NCBI GenBank assembly: GCA_944390455.1
Contig: CALXPU010000003.1
Location: 5,099 to 69,098, forward strand
Direction: 5' to 3'
DNA: 64,000 nucleotides
From: an uncultured Alphaproteobacteria bacterium
GTDB taxonomy: Bacteria; Pseudomonadota; Alphaproteobacteria; RF32; CAG-239
Position 1 is the first letter of the stretch. The number at the start of each line of letters is the position of its first letter. Position numbers and translations under genes: made by a program. The notes under the pieces were generated by a model, which did no database searches, had not been told where the DNA came from, and worked only from the letters and a program-made list of their open reading frames with translations. This document shows positions 21,585-61,814 of the stretch, piece after piece.

Positions 21585-22853
21585 TTAGGCGTGTGTGTTT
21601 TTCTGATGTTGCATCTTTTTTATTTCATTTAACATCAGATTTGCTTTTTGATTTTGAAATTCTTCACGACTGATTTTATGAGTTTTTAATAGAGATAAAC
21701 TTTCTCTAAATTCTGGAATTGTTTGTAATTTTATTGAGGAAACTTTATCGTATAAATCTTGTAGCTCTGTTGCTATGTCGTTAAAATTTTTCTCATCTTC
21801 CGGCGGAATTTTATAATCTCGCCCATGTATATCTGCTGACATTACGGCGATAAAACGCTGAAGATATATTCTTTGCGGAAAATTATGCAGTCCTATGGCT
21901 ATTTGCATTAATTGCTTTTTGACTTTTATCAATGGATTATGCGATACCATATGATTAAGTGCGCAAAAACGCGCAAATTTAGTATATGACGTCGGAAAAT
22001 GCATTCTCTTGGACATTATCTCAATTAGTTTATCCCCTAAAACATCATGCCCCTTGTGCGACGGCCATTTTTGCGGATTTGTTTCGCCTTTTCCTACGTC
22101 GTGCAAAAACGTTCCAAAATTAACAAAAGAATCATCTGATGATGCGGCTTGAATTGATAATAATGTATGTTGCCCGCTGTTTCCTTCCGGATGATAGTCT
22201 AATCTTTCCGGCACACTCCATAGTTTCTCTATTTCAGGAAAAATCTCTTGTAGTGCTCCACACTCTCTTGCCGTTAAGATAAATTTATCAAAATGCTTGC
22301 AATGCAACGCTTTTTCTATTTCATTCCAGATACGTTGATTACTCAAATTTTTCAACTCGCCGTTTTTTACCATCTGACGGCATAAATCCATTGTTTCCGG
22401 CGCTACTGTAAAATCCAATTGTGCGGCAAAACGACACATGCGCAAAATACGAAGGGGATCTTCACAAAAATGTGCGGAAATATGTCTTAAAATTCGCTTA
22501 TTTATATCTTCTATACCGTTATGAAAATCCAATATTTCATTTTTTTCTTCATCAAAATAAAGCGCATTACAGGTAAAATCACGGCGAAGCGAATCTTCTT
22601 CTAAAGTTATGTCTGGGGTAAATTCAAATTTAAAATCTTGATGTTTTTTCCCGATTTTTATTTCTTTTCGTGCTAATGCGTATTCTTCTCCGGTTTTGGG
22701 GTGCAAAAAAACAGGAAAGCTTTTACCTACTTTCTTAAAACCTAAGGCTAACATTTCAGCCTCTGAGCCTCCTAAAACGACAAAATCTCTATCTTGACTC
22801 CGACGTTTTAGTACCCTATCCCGAACGGCTCCGCCAACCTGATAAAAACGCAT
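21585..22853 (-). CDS. cca: CCA-adding tRNA nucleotidyltransferase with HD domain
   Basis: YQVGGAVRD, DRDFVV, EYALARKE, RRDFTCNA, EDPLRILR..RF, YHPE, LHDVGKG. Confidence 0.93.
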   Translation of the reverse strand: MRFYQVGGAVRDRVLKRRSQDRDFVVLGGSEAEMLALGFKKVGKSFPVFLHPKTGEEYALARKEIKIGKKHQDFKFEFTPDITLEEDSLRRDFTCNALYFDEEKNEILDFHNGIEDINKRILRHISAHFCEDPLRILRMCRFAAQLDFTVAPETMDLCRQMVKNGELKNLSNQRIWNEIEKALHCKHFDKFILTARECGALQEIFPEIEKLWSVPERLDYHPEGNSGQHTLLSIQAASSDDSFVNFGTFLHDVGKGETNPQKWPSHKGHDVLGDKLIEIMSKRMHFPTSYTKFARFCALNHMVSHNPLIKVKKQLMQIAIGLHNFPQRIYLQRFIAVMSADIHGRDYKIPPEDEKNFNDIATELQDLYDKVSSIKLQTIPEFRESLSLLKTHKISREEFQNQKANLMLNEIKKMQHQKNTHA

Positions 22854-22953
22854 TTTTCTTCCTTTCTTTAGGTGGTAATGTAATAAAATAAACTCAATTT
22901 TGCAAGGTGTTTATCCGGTGCTTAAAAAAAATATCAAAAATCAAAAAAAACTA

Positions 22954-22981
22954 TTGCAAAAAAAAATCTTTTGGTTATAGT
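22954..22981 (+). promoter_or_regulatory. Sigma70-like promoter of tRNA-Lys
   Basis: TTGCAA-N16-TATAGT with upstream A-tracts. Confidence 0.55.
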
Positions 22982-23000
22982 CATTGAAGATTTTGGTTAT

Positions 23001-23077
23001 GGATGCGTAGCTCAGTTGGCTAGAGCAACTGACTCTTAATCAGTGGGTCCAGGGTTCGAATCCCTGCGCGTCTACCA
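23001..23077 (+). tRNA. tRNA-Lys (anticodon CTT), probable prophage integration target
   Basis: Cloverleaf: D arm GCTC/GAGC, anticodon arm ACTGA-CTCTTAA-TCAGT, T arm CAGGG-TTCGAAT-CCCTG, encoded CCA. Confidence 0.97.
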
Positions 23078-23079
23078 CT

Positions 23080-23153
23080 ACATCCCCTTGTATTTACGTG
23101 TTTTATTTTGTGTTTTAGTTAGGGCATTGTTTGCAAGGGGATGTTCTTTTTTT
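23080..23153 (+). terminator. Long-loop inverted repeat/terminator after the tRNA
   Basis: ACATCCCCTTG (23080-90) / CAAGGGGATGT (23134-44), then a T run. Confidence 0.55.
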
Positions 23154-23169
23154 GCGATTCGTTTCATTA

Positions 23170-23191
23170 AATTAGCACAAAATTAGCACAA
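23170..23191. repeat. Tandem 11-bp direct repeat, candidate integrase arm-binding sites
   Basis: AATTAGCACAA twice, about 95 bp from the tRNA end. Confidence 0.55.
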
Positions 23192-23208
23192 TATTTTTAG
23201 TTTCGTTT

Positions 23209-23668
23209 TTTCCATTTTGGAAAGAGTTGAACTTGTAAGGATTGCTTACTTGTTCAACCTGTGCAAATTTTGCACAAGTTCAGTCGGTGACATTTTGTCA
23301 GCAACTGTTCGATTTTTTCGAATAGTTCGGTTTTTCCGATTTTTCTTTCTAAGGACATTTATGTCATTACCAAATTGTTGGCATCAACAAAATGGCTTCA
23401 TTTTATTGAATATCAATAAAAATTGTGTGTCATCGTTATTTGTTTGCACCATATTTCCCTCTTGGTGAAAATGGTGTCATTTTGTCACCGGTTCGTTATC
23501 CTGCAAAAAATGTGATTGCAGTCCTATATTTCCCTGCTAAAAGTGTGATTATTTTCCATTTTTTCGTGCCTAAAATATAATTCTGTGAGATTTTTTCACA
23601 CAAAACGGTATTTATTATGGCGGATTCGCCATATTAAAAAAGAACTGTCAAGCAAAACTTGACAGTTC
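23209..23668. repeat. Array of about 14 heterogeneous short palindromes
   Basis: e.g. AACCTGTGCAAATTTTGCACAAGTT, AACTGTTCGATTTTTTCGAATAGTT, TTTTATTGAATATCAATAAAA, TATGGCGGATTCGCCATA, GAACTGTCAAGCAAAACTTGACAGTTC. Confidence 0.9.
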
Positions 23669-23771
23669 CACCTATTACCGATATTTAGCTGATACCTAAT
23701 ACCTTATAAAAAAATTATCTATTGCCCTAGATAATTTTATATTAGTTCATCCCCATAAACTATCAATATTT

Positions 23772-24008
23772 TTAACGACTTTTCCCCATATACATTTGCA
23801 ACATTTTATCTGCTTGTATTTTCTTTTTAACCGCTTCAACAATACCATCATTTATAACACATCTTGTTTTATATTCGGGATAGGACTCAAGAACGCTCTT
23901 CACAAAATCAATCCATTTTTCTCGTTTTTCATAAGATATTGTAGGACATTTCCCAGGTATATACATGCCAACATAATCGTCAAACTTAACTATATATACT
24001 TCCCTCAT
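23772..24008 (-). CDS. Phage hypothetical protein
   Basis: 78-aa ORF with GGGGGAG RBS. Confidence 0.6.
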   Translation of the reverse strand: MREVYIVKFDDYVGMYIPGKCPTISYEKREKWIDFVKSVLESYPEYKTRCVINDGIVEAVKKKIQADKMLQMYMGKSR

Positions 24009-24113
24009 CGCTCCCCCTTTAATATTTTTCTTGATATTCAGCCAAACATTTTGCCATATCTAACGGCGTTTTAATTCTATCAATACATGTTATAGGCTCA
24101 CGTGGTGCCTCGA

Positions 24114-24689
24114 CTAAATAAAAATCCAATGCATATTTCCAGCTGTTTTTCTAATCCCTTTACATACCAGACTTATACCCGAAGGATTTATCCCTGTATT
24201 TCTATAAGCTTCTTTGCAAGACGTATATATTTTTCCTGTTTCTACACATTTTACAGCATGCTTAAATGCAGAAAGAGATTTTTTTAATTTAGTTTCTGAG
24301 GTATCTTTAATTCCTGTTCTTCCTATTTTATATTTTTCTAAGCTTATCGGATTTCTATTGTTTTCTGAACGAGTAACCCATCTTAAATTACTGATGGAAT
24401 TATTTGTTCTGTTCGTATCAATATGGTCAATTTCCGGTTTATTTTCAGGATTTGGTAAAAAAGCCTGTGCCACAAGCCTATGAATATAAAGACGTTTATT
24501 ATCCAATGAAATCTGTCTGTATCCAGTATCGCTTAAACAGGTTTTTAATATTTTTTCGGGCTTCACTTTTTTATATTGAAAACAGGAAATAATCCGTTCA
24601 ATACTTTTTATTCGTCCCAAAGAGCTTATTTGATATTTTGGATGTTCCGGAATATCTTTCCACACTTCTTCTACCATTGTTTTCTCCAT
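24114..24689 (-). CDS. NUMOD4-HNH homing endonuclease
   Basis: EVWKDIP..YQISSLGRIKS, IHRLVAQAF.PNP..IDHIDT.R.NN...NLRW. Confidence 0.92.
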   Translation of the reverse strand: MEKTMVEEVWKDIPEHPKYQISSLGRIKSIERIISCFQYKKVKPEKILKTCLSDTGYRQISLDNKRLYIHRLVAQAFLPNPENKPEIDHIDTNRTNNSISNLRWVTRSENNRNPISLEKYKIGRTGIKDTSETKLKKSLSAFKHAVKCVETGKIYTSCKEAYRNTGINPSGISLVCKGIRKTAGNMHWIFI

Positions 24690-58189: not shown

Positions 58190-58678
58190 ATGAAAAAAAT
58201 ATTATTATTCTTGTTAATATTTCCATCGTCATCTTATTCAAGTGCTTTGGTATCCGATAATAAATCTTTATTTGTAGAAGATATGGCTTCACAATGTGCT
58301 AAAATACAATATCAACTTGAATACTATCCAATATATCATTCTGAAAAACCTATTCAATATACTTATAATGATTTGCAAAATTGCCTAAATATATATCAAC
58401 AACAAGGAGGCCGAATGGACTTGTATCTGAGTATCTATCAAAAAGCCCAAAATGCGGCTTACTACGGATACCAAAAATGTTTAGATGATACATTAAAGAA
58501 AAAAAATGGCCTATCTTTCCTATGTTCACTTTTTCATGAATTGCATTATGAACTTACAATAACTTTTATATGTTGCCCAGAAGTACATAAAGGTTACGAA
58601 ATTAACGTTGATAACTTTTCATATTTTAGTGAAAAATGTATGCAACAATGTCATGGAGAATGTATATGCTATAAATAA
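58190..58678 (+). CDS. Exported Cys-rich hypothetical protein
   Basis: Signal peptide MKKILLFLLIFPSSSYSSA; multiple Cys. Confidence 0.65.
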   Translation: MKKILLFLLIFPSSSYSSALVSDNKSLFVEDMASQCAKIQYQLEYYPIYHSEKPIQYTYNDLQNCLNIYQQQGGRMDLYLSIYQKAQNAAYYGYQKCLDDTLKKKNGLSFLCSLFHELHYELTITFICCPEVHKGYEINVDNFSYFSEKCMQQCHGECICYK

Positions 58679-58882
58679 CTATATTTTTAATTGCACTACT
58701 TGGCTAAAAAACTTGACTGATAAAAAATTATTAAATAAATTATTGACGAGCTTAGAAAACTCAATCACAATATGCCGCTTGGCGGAGTCTGTGTAATAGA
58801 TTGAATAAGCAGGCACTAATTGTGAGGTGTTTCTAGCTCCGCCGCCTTTGCGCCAAAGGCTTCCCTAGAAAGGAATCACATT

Positions 58883-58993
58883 ATGGACGAGGAAGTATTA
58901 AAAAAAACCCTCACTTTCATCGCAGAAAAACTTGATGAAGTTACGAAAATTCTTCATCAACTATTAGATGAAAAAGATAAGCCCCTGAATTAA
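58883..58993 (+). CDS. 36-aa amphipathic peptide behind a structured leader
   Basis: AAAGGA RBS; MDEEVLKKTLTFIAEKLDEVTKILHQLLDEKDKPLN; promoter TTGACG-N17-CACAAT at 58743-58771. Confidence 0.55.
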   Translation: MDEEVLKKTLTFIAEKLDEVTKILHQLLDEKDKPLN

Positions 58994-59005
58994 GGGGCTT
59001 TTTTT
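58979..59005 (+). terminator. Rho-independent terminator
   Basis: AAGCCCCT-GAATTA-AGGGGCTT plus T run. Confidence 0.85.
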
Positions 59006-59027
59006 ATTTATGCACAAAATATCATGC

Positions 59028-59071
59028 AACACATTTTTTGTGTTGACTTTAACACATTATAAGTGTATAAA
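59028..59071 (+). promoter_or_regulatory. OL/PL-like promoter with two operators
   Basis: AACAC-N7-GTGT at 59028 and 59051, overlapping TTGACT-N17-TATAAA. Confidence 0.8.
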
Positions 59072-59079
59072 ATCCTCAG

Positions 59080-59329
59080 ACATTTGAACAATGCGTTTTT
59101 TTCAAATGTTAGGAAAGGGTTGTTGTTTGTTCTACGCTACTTCGTCCCTTTCCTTTTTCGGGGGAAGTCCGCACGTAATCCTTTAAACATTCTTCCCCCT
59201 CCTTCGGGAGAGTGCTTTTTTACACTTTAGCTATATGACTCCGGCAGAGCCTGCGAAAAGTCTAAAAAATATAAGCAAGCCAAACTCTCCCACTTTGGGA
59301 GGGTATCCATCCGACCTATTGCCCTCCCA
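59080..59329 (+). ncRNA. Structured PL leader with five tandem stem-loops
   Basis: Five 8-9 bp perfect stems, directly readable in the sequence. Confidence 0.55.
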
Positions 59330-59696: not shown

Positions 59697-59881
59697 TGCT
59701 GCTTAATCTCAAAGAAATTCAAAAAAGTTATGAAATGATTGAAACCATTTGGCGGCTTCAAGAGAAATACCACGCAAAAATCAGAAGAATAGACAGTAAA
59801 CAAATCAACTTCCACCAATGGCTATTTAATATTTTAATAGCTGTGTATGTGGTTTTAGCATTATTAAGGTTGTATATCTGA
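59615..59881 (+). CDS. Hypothetical protein with C-terminal TM anchor
   Basis: GGAG RBS, hydrophobic C-terminus, TGATG coupling to the next gene. Confidence 0.5.
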   Translation: MRKMSPKNNPPKKEKTIENSLNELQCLMLLNLKEIQKSYEMIETIWRLQEKYHAKIRRIDSKQINFHQWLFNILIAVYVVLALLRLYI

Positions 59882-61320
59882 TGACACCAATAGAAGAAAA
59901 ATTAGACCGGCTATATCCTAAACTTCGTGTGGGTAGAAAATGCGCAAACCCAAACTGTTCTCGTGATGCCGTGCATGTACACCACATTGTGCGAAGAAAT
60001 GTTGATTTACTACGCTACGATGTAAACAACTTGCTTCCTCTTTGTGAAGAATGCCATCGCAAAATACATGATGAAGGTATGTTTAATCGCGGCTTAGATT
60101 TTGTGGATGAAGCTAAACGCCAATATCTTATGCGCTTAAAAAATGTTGACTTTAAGCAATATCTTTTGGAGCTGAATATTACAAAAGATGATTTTTTTGC
60201 GGCAAAAGAACGAGACATATTAAAGCATATCGGCAAGACCGAGTATAAGCAAAATACCGAAGAATGGCTAGACCAAAAAAATTATGGAATAGGCGCAAGC
60301 GAAATAGCATCCGTGGTTAAGAGTTTTGTTCCGCAAAAAGAGCTTATTGAAACAATGGGAGAAAAACCGGCATTAAACTTCTTAAGTGAAAATCTATTTT
60401 CAACCGGTTACCAAGTGTACCACAAAATTAAACGTGGTTATCGCATGGAGCCTTTGCCTGATGAATTATCAATCTATGGACACGCCATGGAAAAATATAT
60501 TGATTGGCTATTTAGAGATGACGTTAATTTTTGCTTTAGTGGTACTGACGACTTTATCAAACGCCCGGACATTTCAAAATATGCGGTTTGCTCGCCTGAT
60601 GGTTACGCAGAAAGCATGAATTTAAGTTTTGTTGATATAAACTTAAAAACTCATACATGCAAGCACCTGGTTTGGGAAAAGAAAACGGTAAACCCATTTA
60701 AGGCCGCGCGCGAAAATATCTTTTATAACGGCTTGCCATGGCAATATATATTCCAACTTCAATATCAAATGAAACTTTGTAATACAGAAGCCGGTATTAT
60801 ATCATCCATGGTTTTGGAACAAGACACCCCATTTAACCGGGGCCGCATAGTTAGCTTAGTTGAACAAGGTTTGTTTGATGAAATCCAGCGTTTGTTTGAA
60901 ATAAGAACCGATAATTTTATCTACGGAATTATTCCAGAAATTCAAATGGTGATTGATAAGGCGTTATTCTACTTTGAAAAAGCTATTGATGAAAACCGTA
61001 TTCCAGAGATTAACGATAAATGTGCCAGATTGGCCGAAAATGATTTTAAGATTTATCAAGCCGTTTATAAAGCTAATCCGGATGCGCGCAAACTTGCAAC
61101 CGCTCAAGAAGAATTTGAAGGTAAGCCGCTATGTGATTTTGTTAATGATTACATTTGGCTAAATGGCGTTATCAAAGACAATAACGAGCAAGATAAATTA
61201 AATAAGACACTTTTGAAAAAATACATGTACGACAACAAACTTTGCGAACTTTACACGCTTGACGGCGGATCAATCCGTTTGTCTGCGAGTGGCGCATTAT
61301 TGACAAAGGCGATACAATGA
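59881..61320 (+). CDS. HNH (NinG-like) domain fused to a YqaJ/lambda-exonuclease domain
   Basis: C...C..HVHHI..NL..LCEECH..IH; GIGASEIA, SPDG, E.K, Y..QLQ.QM. Confidence 0.8.
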   Translation: MTPIEEKLDRLYPKLRVGRKCANPNCSRDAVHVHHIVRRNVDLLRYDVNNLLPLCEECHRKIHDEGMFNRGLDFVDEAKRQYLMRLKNVDFKQYLLELNITKDDFFAAKERDILKHIGKTEYKQNTEEWLDQKNYGIGASEIASVVKSFVPQKELIETMGEKPALNFLSENLFSTGYQVYHKIKRGYRMEPLPDELSIYGHAMEKYIDWLFRDDVNFCFSGTDDFIKRPDISKYAVCSPDGYAESMNLSFVDINLKTHTCKHLVWEKKTVNPFKAARENIFYNGLPWQYIFQLQYQMKLCNTEAGIISSMVLEQDTPFNRGRIVSLVEQGLFDEIQRLFEIRTDNFIYGIIPEIQMVIDKALFYFEKAIDENRIPEINDKCARLAENDFKIYQAVYKANPDARKLATAQEEFEGKPLCDFVNDYIWLNGVIKDNNEQDKLNKTLLKKYMYDNKLCELYTLDGGSIRLSASGALLTKAIQ

Positions 61321-61814
61321 CAAATGAGATTTATAAACCAGTAGTCGGATATGAGGGGCTTTATGAAGTATCTAATATAGGTAATATAAAAAGTCTATAC
61401 TTAAAAGGTAAAAGAAGAGATAAAATATTAAAACCACAAGCAAATATTAGAGATTCATATTTTCAAGTTATTTTACATAAAGACGGCATAAAAAGAAAAT
61501 ATCCCGTCCATAGACTTGTTGCTAAAGCATTTCTTCCACCTATTGATGATAAGCCGTTCGTGAATCACATTGATAGTAATAAACAAAATAATAATGTTGA
61601 AAATCTCGAATGGTGTAACAACCAAGAAAATATTATTCATTCCTTTAAGAGTGGATTACGAAAAGTTACAAAGATTAGAGATGTTGATACAGGAGAAATT
61701 TTTTTAGGATATGAAAAAGCAGGAAAATCAATAAATGCAACTGCTTGTGCCATAAGAATTGCCTTGATTAACAATAGAACAGTTAAAAAACATAAATTTG
61801 AAAGGGTTTTATAA
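61317..61814 (+). CDS. NUMOD4-HNH homing endonuclease
   Basis: GYEGLYEVSN.G.IKS, VHRLVAKAF, VNHIDSNK.NN...NLEW. Confidence 0.92.
   Translation: MTNEIYKPVVGYEGLYEVSNIGNIKSLYLKGKRRDKILKPQANIRDSYFQVILHKDGIKRKYPVHRLVAKAFLPPIDDKPFVNHIDSNKQNNNVENLEWCNNQENIIHSFKSGLRKVTKIRDVDTGEIFLGYEKAGKSINATACAIRIALINNRTVKKHKFERVL

Follow-up and report, generated by a model that had tools for sequence, protein, structure and literature searches.

A palindrome array beside a prophage attachment site carries counterparts of in-gene palindromes from candidate defence genes

Inside a ~45-kb prophage, directly adjoining its left attachment site at a tRNA-Lys gene, lies a 460-bp array of mutually different palindromes (23209-23668 of the 64,000-nt stretch of DNA analysed here, which we call the window). 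Eight of its 14 units are within 3 mismatches (inner 19 nt) of a known in-gene operator, as compared with 3 of 1565 background palindromes of the genome, none of which comes within 2. We read the region, tentatively and with slightly more doubt than belief, as a mosaic operator array of at least three candidate anti-phage families that would act as a protein sponge or decoy. The decoy function is plausible and is our inference: the array may be bound in vivo, to some benefit of the phage. An earlier note, made from the letters of the sequence, had proposed a decoy of this kind, and its interpretation as a whole is partly supported.

Position, density, and makeup of the array

The array is the most palindrome-dense 460 bp in the whole 1.54-Mb genome. 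Counting as hairpins only structures with 8 or more matched bp per arm, no more than 1 mismatch, and a loop no longer than 7, we found 6 in it that do not overlap, against a mean of 0.71 in dinucleotide-preserving shuffles, none of which reached 6 (n = 1000); arm thresholds of 6, 7, and 9 likewise gave an excess over shuffles. In a sliding 460-bp count over all 32 contigs, the array window had the maximum of 7 hairpins, the genome mean was 0.625, and the runner-up, with 6, was a contig end with tRNA-like repeats. The single-strand fold of the region gave z-scores of -8.7 (+ strand) and -8.8 (- strand), equalled by none of 100 shuffles. The palindromes listed in the earlier note are all present in the sequence, and the density above shuffled DNA that it expected was borne out; they do not fill the whole stretch, however, for 23500-23565 is a 33-bp tandem direct repeat instead. 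The units are 15-33 bp long, none has a second genomic copy longer than 17 nt, and the other palindrome-rich places of the genome, which are tRNA/rRNA-like or AT-rich, have no units in common with the array (Table 1).

Table 1. Features of the attachment region and the array (positions in the window)
Feature	Position	Strand	Description
tRNA-Lys(CTT) gene	23001-23077	+	ARAGORN; Rfam tRNA 69.4 bits; 3' half is part of the att repeat
attL	23027-23180		Copy of the ~154-bp direct repeat bounding the ~45-kb prophage; 97% identity to attR
Two direct 11-bp repeats (AAATTAGCACA)	23169-23190	+	At the edge of the att repeat
u01, degenerate RhuM-type operator	23204-23228		Core TTTCC/GGAAA; right half ends AGTT; left outer arm lost
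u02, RhuM-type operator	23226-23258		Core GTAAG; symmetry extended to 33 bp (GTTGAAC...GTTCAAC)
u03, RhuM-type operator	23256-23280		Core GTGCA; R1 36.4 bits, E 1.7e-7 over the window
u04, Bro-N-type operator	23282-23306		Core GGTGACA; 3 mismatches
u05, RhuM-type operator	23303-23327		Core TTCGA; R1 29.9 bits, E 1.2e-5; 3 mismatches
u06, partial RhuM-type operator	23321-23345		GTTCGGTTTTTCCGA as in L174/L053; right outer arm lost; 4 mismatches
u07 and u08, palindromes, no cognate found	23350-23395		Distances 8-11, as background
u09 and conserved promoter-upstream motif	23399-23444	-	AACAAATAACGATGACACACAAT...TTGATA on the - strand; -10 element poor here
u10 (no cognate) and u11 (Bro-N-type)	23447-23493		u11 core GGTG(T/A)CA, 2 mismatches to L246; u10, 9
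Relic promoter region including u12	23500-23625	+	Two 33-bp tandem repeats (..AAAA(A/G)TGTGATT..); TTTCCA-17-TATAAT (23553-23581)
u13, KilA-N-type operator	23611-23638		2 mismatches, inner 19 nt
u14, RhuM-type operator and intrinsic terminator	23641-23669	-	Core TCAAG; GAAC...GTTC symmetry; R1 29.5 bits, E 1.5e-5
Late-arm end genes	23772-24689	-	78-aa ORF (23772-24008); NUMOD4/HNH_3 homing endonuclease (24114-24689)

A direct-repeat search found only the 2-copy 33-bp tandem and short families and no constant repeat with unique spacers, in agreement with the view of the earlier note that this is not a CRISPR array. In an Rfam 15 scan of 22900-23900, the tRNA alone was above threshold. The same note had set terminators aside for want of U-tails, which is true of most units but not of the last: on the - strand (23669-23641), u14 forms a 13-pair stem followed by TTTTTTAA and is an intrinsic terminator behind the late/lysis operon. 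On the + strand u05 weakly resembles a terminator, and the other units lack a T-tail; the terminator scan gave 2 terminator-like sites against 1.0 expected, and the promoter scan 7 promoter-like sites against 6.3.

The array is non-coding, and one decayed gene is ruled out as its origin. Pfam matched neither of the only ORFs that cross it (83 and 51 aa), and DNA searches of 61 and 282 related genomes returned nothing but short patches, none longer than 83 nt, from different genes and from intergenic motifs, rather than a collinear alignment to one gene. One stretch, the tandem at 23500-23565 together with 23553-23625, is a relic promoter, leader, and start codon like those upstream of an AAA-ATPase gene in related genomes, where such a gene, encoding 432-437 aa, directly follows 32-bp repeats in 6 of the 8 loci that we inspected. 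The u12 palindrome sits at the expected transcript start, and the leader and ATG that follow have no gene behind them. The motif associated with u09 is intergenic in four other loci (L065, where it occurs twice, L066, L078, and L080), and in L078 it precedes TTGACA-17-TATAAG ahead of a tRNA gene.

The att repeat includes the tRNA terminator hairpin (23080-23144), and its attR copy lies beyond the window end (G000:C3:73618-73771), where it is adjoined by a tyrosine integrase and an HTH_17 ORF. The attP form is represented by a 37.9-kb contig of run X8, which joins the integrase side directly to 23030. The array is placed between the late-operon terminator and attP, and in the circular form it is downstream of int. 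Spanin, lysozyme, and holin genes lie upstream of the two last late-arm genes, the 78-aa ORF, which has no assigned function, and the homing endonuclease; the prophage also encodes RecT and a YqaJ-like exonuclease. The AAATTAGCACA repeats are a candidate integrase-binding motif; similar GCACAAAAT repeats adjoin the homologous att region of G010, the closest integrase relative, and ATTAGCACAA adjoins the integrase of G112.

In-gene palindromes and their counterparts in the array

We examined 80 RhuM loci from many phyla, of which 78 were evaluable. A 25-bp palindrome with at least 9 matched bp per arm occupies one fixed codon position, 55 or 46 nt ahead of the codon for Y in YNLD, in 65 of the 78 genes, compared with 3 of 467 control windows; once the centre is fixed, 9 or more of the 12 positions pair in every one of the 78. 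In the 12+1+12 dyad the outermost bases are AAC/GTT (or AGT/ACT), positions 6-10 form the 5-bp core that covaries, and the middle base is A or T. Among 68 distinct sites, 90.9% of the cells are paired (70.2% in shuffles) and two-sided changes affect 181 cells (51.5 in shuffles; 0 of 500 shuffles reached this), and the mismatches have no wobble bias (G.T 19, A.C 17, other 57). The core, variable and always paired, takes up 5 bp in each half-site, the two centres being separated by 10 bp, and 24 cores occur among 79 genes. Its mutual information with the protein is confined to the end of the turn and to positions 1, 2, 3, 5, and 6 of the recognition helix of the helix-turn-helix (HTH), and is near zero for other, equally variable columns. 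At 45-55% background identity, pairs of genes with the same core (n = 107) share 68% of these 7 helix/turn residues, as opposed to 19% for pairs with different cores (n = 1827).

Because the core covaries only with the HTH recognition helix, we take the palindrome to be the protein's own predicted operator: to judge from sequence, it behaves as a protein-binding site rather than as an RNA hairpin. In principle, the covariation could instead reflect co-evolution, internal to the protein, between the helix and the strand that the palindrome encodes. Of 50 distinct model matches in related genomes, 17 are outside ORFs of at least 100 aa, some of these being pseudogene fragments; the core of one intergenic site is that of the RhuM gene 12 kb away, and elsewhere two RhuM-type sites abut each other. 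The RhuM N-terminal domain has a confident AlphaFold2 model (pLDDT 82), for which Foldseek found no match in the PDB at E <= 0.001 (best 0.26).

The RNA question bears on the array as well, which might be transcribed, from either strand, into a hairpin chain that acts as a multi-target antisense, or might be a place where int and late transcripts are processed, as at sib, or terminated. An array transcript could pair with palindrome-bearing mRNAs because a palindrome is its own complement, and several features point the same way: the strong folding on both strands, the genuine terminator in u14, the conserved promoter-upstream motif directed leftwards into u08-u01, and the circular form, in which int transcripts would enter the array as they do at lambda sib. 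We nevertheless think a role as RNA quite improbable, given that the in-gene palindromes have no G.U bias and are symmetric through the centre, which an RNA loop does not need, that terminator-like sites are so few, that the -10 element of the leftward promoter is poor, and that the array has no Rfam match.

In-gene palindromes are also found in other families. For Bro-N, 40 loci were fetched and 19 were evaluable by motif; 18 of these 19 have a palindrome whose centre lies 29 nt ahead of the DGK codon, compared with 3 of 94 controls, and it encodes the peptide ESV(S/T)(K/N)CHRLKL. The core of this dyad is GGTGACA or a variant of it, and the outer bases are AGT/ACT or AAC/GTT. The KilA-N dyad, TTAATTATGGCG..CGCCATAATTAA, occurs both in the gene, where it encodes NYGxFA, and in the promoter, as in L240 and L241. 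For DUF1016_N, a 25-bp palindrome lies within the gene in 3 of 5 loci, none like an array unit, and ORF6N was matched in only 1 of 151 genomes, where no informative palindrome was present. The RhuM, Bro-N, and KilA-N families are defence candidates in PADLOC, labelled PDC-S05 (PDC-S23 when RhuM is fused to Fic/Doc), PDC-S13, and PDC-S22, respectively, and a preprint describes ~1000-fold protection against T7 and T5 by a PDC-S05 (Virulence_RhuM) gene (10.1101/2024.09.26.614923). In G020, a 44-kb element with tRNA-Lys repeats on either side carries a Bro-N gene of the PDC-S13 type; thus, such genes travel on elements at the tRNA-Lys att site.

The array holds counterparts of all three families, each of which the earlier note had named on the basis of translated peptides. 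A covariance model (R1), built from 68 foreign RhuM genes only, found three sites, u03, u05, and u14, all in the array and the only ones in the whole genome (E <= 1.5e-5 over 64 kb); the next-best match in the window scored 15.8 bits. By core and arms, u02, u01, and u06 also fit the RhuM type below the R1 threshold (u02 was not detected by R1 at E <= 10), so that four units match the RhuM in-gene palindrome and two, u01 and u06, do so in part. Since the array is non-coding, its sites have no counterpart of the fixed RhuM codon position. Four of its six RhuM cores are among the 8 core types of 12 genus genomes, where ~2 would be expected by chance, an overlap to which we attach no weight. The closest single matches are 1 mismatch for u03 against a known in-gene site, 2 (inner 19 nt) for u01 against the RhuM gene of L223, and 3 for u02 against L110; BLAST placed u02 on the palindrome inside a RhuM-N/Fic gene of G003, and u14 agrees in 26 of 27 nt with a site that immediately follows the Rha domain in a gene of G163. 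In both u02 and u14 the symmetry (GAAC..GTTC) is longer than genes allow, because there a Ser or Ala codon fixes that base.

The Bro-N in-gene palindrome is matched, over the inner 19 nt, by u04 and u11; the left half of u04 matches PDC-S13 genes and its right half the Bro-N gene of L077, and the AACTG at its end is common to u05. The KilA-N palindrome, peptide NYG(E/G)FA, is matched by u13, which shares 16 identical nt with the palindrome inside the PDC-S22 gene of L240, in a small sample of 5 KilA-N loci, 3 of them with this type. Both u06 and u12 are marginal in operator matching. For u07-u10, of which u08-u10 would correspond, as CATTTT..AAAATG palindromes, to the DinD-like HF....KM segment named in the earlier note, the nearest-operator distances (7-11) are those of the background, and searches of 282 genomes of the family gave no significant in-gene match; family-wide matches of u07 and u08 are at chance level and in unrelated genes. 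Thus, the claim that the palindromes are sites of several DNA-binding families stands for RhuM, Bro-N, and KilA-N, and is not supported for these four units, for which no cognate was found.

We found no protein that would bind these sites. Neither the host assembly (92% complete), searched for RhuM, Bro-N, Rha, ORF6N, KilA-N, and DUF1016_N, nor the 29 prophage ORFs compared with Pfam or PHROGs (int, the HTH ORF next to attR, and 26 ORFs of the window) contain any of the cognate families, as the earlier note had said of the window. The 73 strong palindromes inside long ORFs of the host genome include nothing of the RhuM kind. Therefore, the array has nothing to bind in this lysogen.

Turnover of the array and its possible roles

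Near-identical phages from other studies (runs X5, X6, X8, and X11) have kept the att region and the 78-aa ORF, whereas, over the parts of the stretch that these runs cover, their array units are deleted, replaced, or permuted, with several breakpoints at unit borders; arrays of related phages gain and lose units, as the earlier note anticipated. Among variants of this phage, losses from the array reach 224 bp, and a 402-nt insertion also occurs. Beyond these variants, we found only two small operator clusters, in G112 and G231, which adjoin tyrosine recombinase genes. The homologous att arm of G010 (integrase 79% identical, att region 80% identical) has no array, and 30 loci of the genus have no comparable array downstream of tRNA-Lys, some of them having stacked ~270-bp units. 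A blastn search of 23080-23760 against the phage collection gave no match, the 78-aa ORF and the integrase have no relatives in viral_contigs, and relatives of the lysozyme are found in two distant phages (51-54% identity), neither with an array.

This distribution bears on two explanations that start from the position of the array. It could be an ordinary attP arm, with sites for the integrase, excisionase, and host bending proteins; it does lie beside the att core, and the AAATTAGCACA repeats are conserved beside related integrases. We give this very little credence, as no two palindromes are alike and their matches are to operators of unrelated proteins, G010 has a closely similar integrase and att region and no array, and up to 224 bp of it is missing from variants. 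The array could also be a cis-regulatory landing pad on which resident RhuM, Bro-N, or KilA-N proteins, encoded by the host or other prophages, act on the phage, which would thereby sense the cell's systems, the target being the attP/int region (integration or excision) or late-operon read-through. On the one hand, the operator identity rests on the same evidence as for a decoy, the array adjoins the attP core downstream of int in the circular form, and the clusters of G112 and G231 are beside recombinase genes. On the other hand, the left array has no promoter of any strength, one copy each of many specificities suggests breadth rather than control, and the nearest integrase relative works without an array, all of which makes a landing pad improbable.

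Our preferred reading, the decoy, would work as follows. RhuM, Bro-N, and KilA-N proteins each have their own 25-bp dyad operator (12+1+12) in the coding sequence and sometimes in the promoter too; the phage has, end to end, one copy each of several specificity variants and none of the proteins. The sites may bind such proteins once the phage meets a producing cell or a rival prophage; replication of the phage genome would multiply them to hundreds of copies, and these may soak up the proteins or hold them on the DNA, so that defence or exclusion is blunted. Turnover of units would then track the specificity repertoire of the host population. Several points count against this. The cognate proteins are missing from the host assembly, u07-u10 have no cognate and u06 and u12 are marginal, u02 escapes the RhuM model, the covariation might be internal to the protein, the closest integrase relative has no array, and beyond variants of this phage we found only two small clusters. 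Titration of an autorepressor could raise, not lower, the level of a toxic defence protein, and the array region contains a relic promoter and start codon without a gene; therefore, non-functional fragments do persist there.

A variant of the decoy idea, which we regard as doubtful, is that the effectors are held in check by sitting on their in-gene operators. RhuM-, Bro-N-, and KilA-N-type proteins would guard their own DNA, and a phage that degrades or remodels host DNA would remove the anchor and let the effector fire; compact, fast-evolving operator arrays on phages would be surrogate anchors that keep the effectors DNA-bound. The many operator/helix specificities would be the trace of an arms race, and the array would be the first DNA-level, multi-specific anti-defence decoy.

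The main rival to the decoy, if a somewhat unlikely one, is that the units are scars without function. The region between the lysis module and attP would be a moron hot spot, where cassettes, among them RhuM, Bro-N, or KilA-N defence genes together with their operators, are gained and lost, the cassettes being deleted and their palindromes left stacked by recombination at the outer arms (AAC/GTT microhomology), perhaps through the phage RecT/YqaJ or palindrome instability. Much of what was described above would fit: the gene-less relic promoter, leader, and start codon in the same stretch, units that share or abut at AAC/GTT, the RecT and YqaJ-like exonuclease, variants that differ by deletions, replacements, and an insertion, the tRNA-Lys-flanked element with a Bro-N gene in G020, and a genome without cognate proteins. 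It is harder to reconcile with scars that no unit has coding remnants beside it, gene homology ending at the palindrome; that 8-10 units of three families tile with spacings from overlaps to gaps of 0-5 nt, unlike random deletion end points; that the flanks of u02 and u14 are more palindromic than any gene copy can be; and that the units are still nearly perfect dyads.

If the decoy reading is true, RhuM/DinD, Bro-N, KilA-N, and DUF1016-type candidate defence genes, which are widespread but little understood, may share an undescribed in-gene dyad operator, and the covariation of RhuM operator and helix would be a readable recognition code and an experimental handle on control or triggering. 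Phages may then counter DNA-binding defence with bare DNA, a modular library of sites, instead of with a protein or an RNA, and such counter-defence would be invisible to gene-based annotation. The array would also predict host range, in that the units it contains should correspond to the operator types found in the defence genes of susceptible hosts. We found no literature report of in-gene operators or of counter-defence by a DNA array; subscription journals and supplements were outside the scope of this search, and an earlier description is possible.

Comparison with known systems

Lambda also has structured non-coding DNA past attP that is downstream of int in the circle and separated from it in the prophage. 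However, sib is a single RNase III hairpin and the attP arms carry direct arm-type sites, neither of which accounts for 14 different dyads that match foreign operators. Integron attC arrays are similar in their imperfect palindromes running from ..AAC to GTT.., variable in sequence with symmetry kept, and in cassette turnover near a tyrosine recombinase. The attC sites are 57-141 bp long, adopt a single-strand fold with extrahelical bases, lie on either side of cassettes, and depend on IntI, whereas we found units within 15-33 bp (the array units compared here are 25-33 bp), no cassettes between them, and a 352-aa phage-type integrase that targets tRNA-Lys. REP/BIME elements are likewise mosaic extragenic clusters of short palindromes, but the REP units of enterobacteria belong to few families with hundreds of copies per genome and are linked to RAYT transposases; each array unit is single-copy in its genome and matches in-gene operators elsewhere. 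The hrs of baculoviruses are viral arrays of ~30-bp imperfect palindromes associated with Bro-N family genes. They repeat one palindrome type, bound by IE-1, and serve as enhancers and origins in eukaryotic viruses, and we know of no link between them and in-gene palindromes.

Other known systems resemble the array in its proposed action. E. coli datA, a cluster of DnaA boxes, and incA of plasmid P1, an iteron array, are both binding-site sinks and thus, like the array, non-coding site clusters proposed to titrate a DNA-binding protein. Each has one repeated site for one protein of the same replicon; in the array, all sites are different, they belong to several unrelated families that are not encoded with them, and the proposed target is the defence of the other side. 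RNA anti-CRISPRs (Racr) are solitary CRISPR repeat units borne by phages that act as decoys, and there, too, a phage has non-coding copies of a nucleic-acid element bound by a defence protein. Racr is an RNA with one repeat type that acts on Cas, whereas the array consists of double-stranded-DNA-type dyad operators of HTH, Bro-N, and KilA-N domains.

The array at the left end of a prophage

The 154-bp repeat at the tRNA-Lys gene occurs again 45.5 kb further downstream on this contig, shortly past the window end (97% identity); the second copy adjoins a 352-aa tyrosine integrase gene and a small HTH_17 ORF. Between the repeats lie phage genes for holin, lysozyme, spanin, tail, head, portal, terminase and RecT/YqaJ, together with a CI-like repressor and two NUMOD4/HNH_3 homing endonucleases; a third HNH domain is fused to a YqaJ-like exonuclease. 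The repeats, the integrase and these genes place the array just inside a prophage of ~45 kb, as its first DNA at attL. It follows the leftward late operon; in the circular form of the phage, it stands immediately past attP as seen from int. The attP arrangement is seen in a 37.9-kb contig of X8, another public run with a near-identical phage, where the sequence that follows the integrase gene stands left of 23030.

Features of the prophage and its left end (window positions)
Feature	Position	Strand	Remarks
tRNA-Lys(CTT)	23001-23077		
att repeat, 154 bp	23027-23180		tRNA 3' half and ~100 bp behind
Array	23209-23668		non-coding
Promoter-upstream motif	23399-23444	-	same motif 5' of promoters elsewhere; -10 poor here
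33-bp tandem direct repeat	23500-23565		
Relic promoter region	23500-23625		gene gone
Promoter-like TTTCCA-17-TATAAT	23553-23581		
Late-operon terminator	23669-23641	-	u14 region
NUMOD4/HNH_3 endonuclease gene	24114-24689	-	
YqaJ-like exonuclease fused to HNH domain	59881-61320		
NUMOD4/HNH_3 endonuclease gene	61317-61814	+	

That the array is a plain attP arm is very unlikely, as related genome G010 lacks it despite 79% identity in the integrase and 80% in the att region. The G010 prophage (L014, G010:C81) has six 22-bp iterons, GGGG(T/C)AAAAGGCACAAAATGA, ~720-860 bp past tRNA-Lys, and a GCACAAAAT motif is found again beside the att core in G010 and in the window. In four other genomes of the genus, G034, G015, G005 and G022 (loci L032, L033, L035 and L040), two or three tandem units of ~270-300 bp stand behind tRNA-Lys, each closing with a copy of the tRNA 3' end and a terminator hairpin; these resemble a stack of miniature integrative elements, or what is left of them, at this att site.

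The inverted repeats listed in the earlier note (here u01 to u14) are all present within the 460 bp. In the comparison with shuffled sequence that it proposed, the array has six non-overlapping hairpins (8 or more matched bp per arm), against a mean of 0.71 in dinucleotide shuffles, and none of 1,000 shuffles reached six. It is also the densest 460-bp window of the whole 1.54-Mb assembly (7 versus a mean of 0.625), and no unit recurs over more than 17 nt anywhere else in the genome. Single-strand folding gives z = -8.7 for one strand and -8.8 for the other. A role of the array as RNA seems improbable to us. Second in palindrome richness within the window is ~58650-59110 (seven hairpins whose arms have 7 bp or more), in the prophage early/regulatory region, which has no units in common with the array. 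Elsewhere in the host assembly (G000:C23:366-693), five palindromes cluster ahead of a serine recombinase gene and within its 5' end; one is a 25-bp dyad encoding QTVENQRF right behind the catalytic YIRVSTDKQ motif.

Parts of the stretch are ordinary. The units had been described as lacking U-tails, which is incorrect for the last one, because its 13-pair stem precedes TTTTTTAA, the two forming the late-operon terminator. The tandem repeat, the promoter-like sequence, and a leader and ATG that resemble starts of genes in other genomes together mark a relic promoter region. Counterparts of the tandem repeat are 32-bp repeats (..AAAATGTGATT..) present in two to four copies immediately 5' of a conserved 432-437-aa AAA-ATPase gene at six of the eight related-genome loci examined; such repeats (..TTCCTTGCAAAAATGTGATT..) occur in many genomes of the family (L004, L064, L068, L069, L072, L079) and may serve that gene as tandem promoters or as an operator array. 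In G008, the AAA-ATPase gene sits behind that of a 193-aa tyrosine recombinase. One foreign promoter with the promoter-upstream motif drives a tRNA gene.

A palindrome inside RhuM genes

Weak BLAST matches of the array in 60 relatives fall at the same spot of RhuM-family genes; a Pfam search over 36 genomes of the genus detected such genes in 12. All 12 of these genes have a palindrome of ~25 bp there, with differing sequences. The N-terminal 120 aa were aligned (alignment A1) and 80 loci were collected, the best 80 of 595 candidates, from many phyla and including one archaeon; 78 were evaluable. At a fixed centre, a palindrome with at least 9 matched bp per arm is found in 65 of the 78 loci versus 3 of 467 control windows from the same loci, and at least 9 of 12 positions are paired in all 78. 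The centre lies exactly 55 nt before the Y codon of the YNLD motif (46 nt in one subfamily). Across 68 distinct sites, 90.9% of cells are paired, compared with 70.2% in shuffles and 23-42% in slid registers, and changes on both sides affect 181 cells versus 51.5. Two full-length RhuM genes (L203 and L205, in G131 and G015) also have a palindrome of another type, AGTTATTCAAAA(A/T)TTTTGAATAACT, right behind the stop codon, 846 bp from the in-gene one.

Mismatches within the RhuM palindrome (G.T 19, A.C 17, other 57) show no G.T bias, its symmetry passes through a 1-nt A/T centre, and its variable but almost always paired part, the core, takes up 5 bp of each half-site, the centres lying 10 bp from each other. 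The absence of wobble bias, the symmetry through the centre and the half-site spacing point to the anatomy of a dyad operator, not an RNA hairpin. The 79 RhuM genes (L109-L188, L051-L062, many phyla) have 24 core types. In these sequences, the core shares mutual information only with the palindrome-encoded residues and seven further columns (summed values of 1.45-3.74; other equally variable columns below 0.9, most below 0.3). In an AlphaFold2 model (pLDDT 82), the seven columns are the turn end and positions 1, 2, 3, 5 and 6 of the second HTH helix, and the palindrome-encoded part is the first strand of the beta-hairpin after the HTH. Among pairs at 45-55% identity elsewhere, identity at the seven residues is 68% with the same core versus 19% with different cores (107 versus 1,827 pairs). 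Helix residues and core can be read as a simple code: for example, TCAAG goes with the recognition helix ..TKQNISLH, GTGCA with ..DRTSI.RH, TCCGG with ..DVRTINEH and TTGCA with ..RDKS(V/T)ISRH. We conclude that RhuM-family proteins are predicted to recognise the palindrome of their own gene; the covariation could also reflect co-evolution within the protein, of the helix with the palindrome-encoded strand.

Operator copies outside genes and in the array

A covariance model of the RhuM-type operator built from foreign RhuM genes only (R1, 68 sites) has matches in 39 of 151 family genomes. We examined 50 distinct sites: 33 lie within ORFs of 100 aa or longer (25 RhuM-like by motif; RhuM variants, truncated genes and one Bro-N gene make up the remaining eight), and 17 lie outside such ORFs, some in pseudogene fragments and others clearly intergenic. 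One site outside ORFs in G121 has the same core as a RhuM gene 12 kb away, one lies right behind the stop codon of RhuM genes, and two in G231 abut each other next to a small tyrosine recombinase. In intergenic copies, the symmetry often reaches out to GAAC..GTTC; gene copies cannot follow, the base in question being fixed by a Ser or Ala codon. Small non-coding clusters of two to four different RhuM-type operators, the sole other arrays found, adjoin tyrosine recombinase/integrase genes at L070/L238 (G112:C8, ~347.1 kb) and L222 (G231:C1, ~42.5 kb).

Other families have in-gene palindromes as well. In Bro-N genes (PDC-S13 type; 40 metagenome loci, 19 evaluable by motif and 21 not), a palindrome with varying cores is centred 29 nt before the DGK codon at 18 of 19 loci versus 3 of 94 controls. 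In a small sample of KilA-N genes (five loci, 151 genomes), three loci carry TTAATTATGGCG..CGCCATAATTAA, which encodes NYGxFA and also stands just 5' of the start codon, the expected place of an autoregulatory operator. In an equally small sample, three of five DUF1016_N genes have a 25-bp in-gene palindrome; none of the three resembles an array unit. DUF1016/YhcG-type palindromes (L286, L287, L288) occupy one codon position, with the peptide FPT(R/H)CVGN.

Within the array, R1 matches u03 (36.4 bits), u05 (29.9) and u14 (29.5), the next best score in the 64-kb window being 15.8; these are also its only sites in the whole genome. Counted as mismatches in the inner 19 nt against the closest of 107 collected operators, the distance is 1 for u03, 2 for u01, u11, u13 and u14, 3 for u02, u04 and u05, a marginal 4 for u06 and u12, and 7-11 for u07-u10. 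Among 1,565 other palindromes of the genome, none lies within 2, three lie at 3 and ten at 4. Against this background, eight units are, judged by sequence, copies of operators, five of the RhuM type, two of the Bro-N type and one of the KilA-N type. The match to in-gene palindromes of DNA-binding families claimed in the earlier note thus holds for these eight; u07-u10 have no cognate among the 107 operators. Units u01-u06 tile 23204-23345 with outer AAC/GTT arms common or abutting, and u02 and u14 have the extended symmetry of intergenic operators. That the array is a mosaic of operator copies is well supported by these comparisons.

Variation, candidate binders and possible function

Contigs of four other runs, from three other studies, were compared with 22700-24400, rare forms and absences being beyond contig resolution. 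The att region and a 78-aa ORF are conserved at ~95-99% identity; the array differs, with units lost, replaced and reordered. The earlier note had proposed to compare related prophages for gain and loss of units. X8 lacks 23224-23447 (31 other letters instead) and 23475-23528. X5, and X11 where covered, lack 23322-23447 and 23476-23539; in X5, 402 letters replace 42 at 23665/23708. The order in X6 is ..23321, 23448-23490, 23326-23348, 22 new letters, 23500... Several breakpoints fall at unit borders.

RhuM, Bro-N, Rha, ORF6N, KilA-N and DUF1016_N have no matches in the host assembly (92% complete) or in any of 29 scanned ORFs of the prophage (26 within the window, int, and the HTH ORF next to attR), in agreement with the earlier statement that the window does not encode the binder families. 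Regulation of the phage in cis by RhuM, Bro-N or KilA-N proteins is a reading to which we give little credence. In G020, a PDC-S13 gene lies within a 44-kb element with tRNA-Lys repeats at both ends, so such genes also move on elements using this att site.

We tentatively propose that the array is a binding-site sink against RhuM-, Bro-N- and KilA-N-type proteins of defence or exclusion. Its sites would neutralise such proteins or hold them DNA-bound, and the sink would grow in copy number as the phage replicates. The main rival, which we consider rather unlikely, sees the units as scars left by cassette turnover at a moron hot spot. On the one hand, the stretch also holds a relic promoter and the phage has a RecT system, both of which would fit such turnover. 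On the other hand, the units are tightly tiled, their symmetry is perfected, and flanking coding remnants are wholly absent.

The proteins that a sink would address fall into candidate defence families of PADLOC: RhuM is PDC-S05, RhuM-N/Fic fusions are PDC-S23, the Bro-N protein is PDC-S13 and KilA-N is PDC-S22. For one PDC-S05 (Virulence_RhuM) gene in E. coli B, a preprint reports plating reduced ~1000-fold for T7 and T5 and ~10-fold for T4 (10.1101/2024.09.26.614923).
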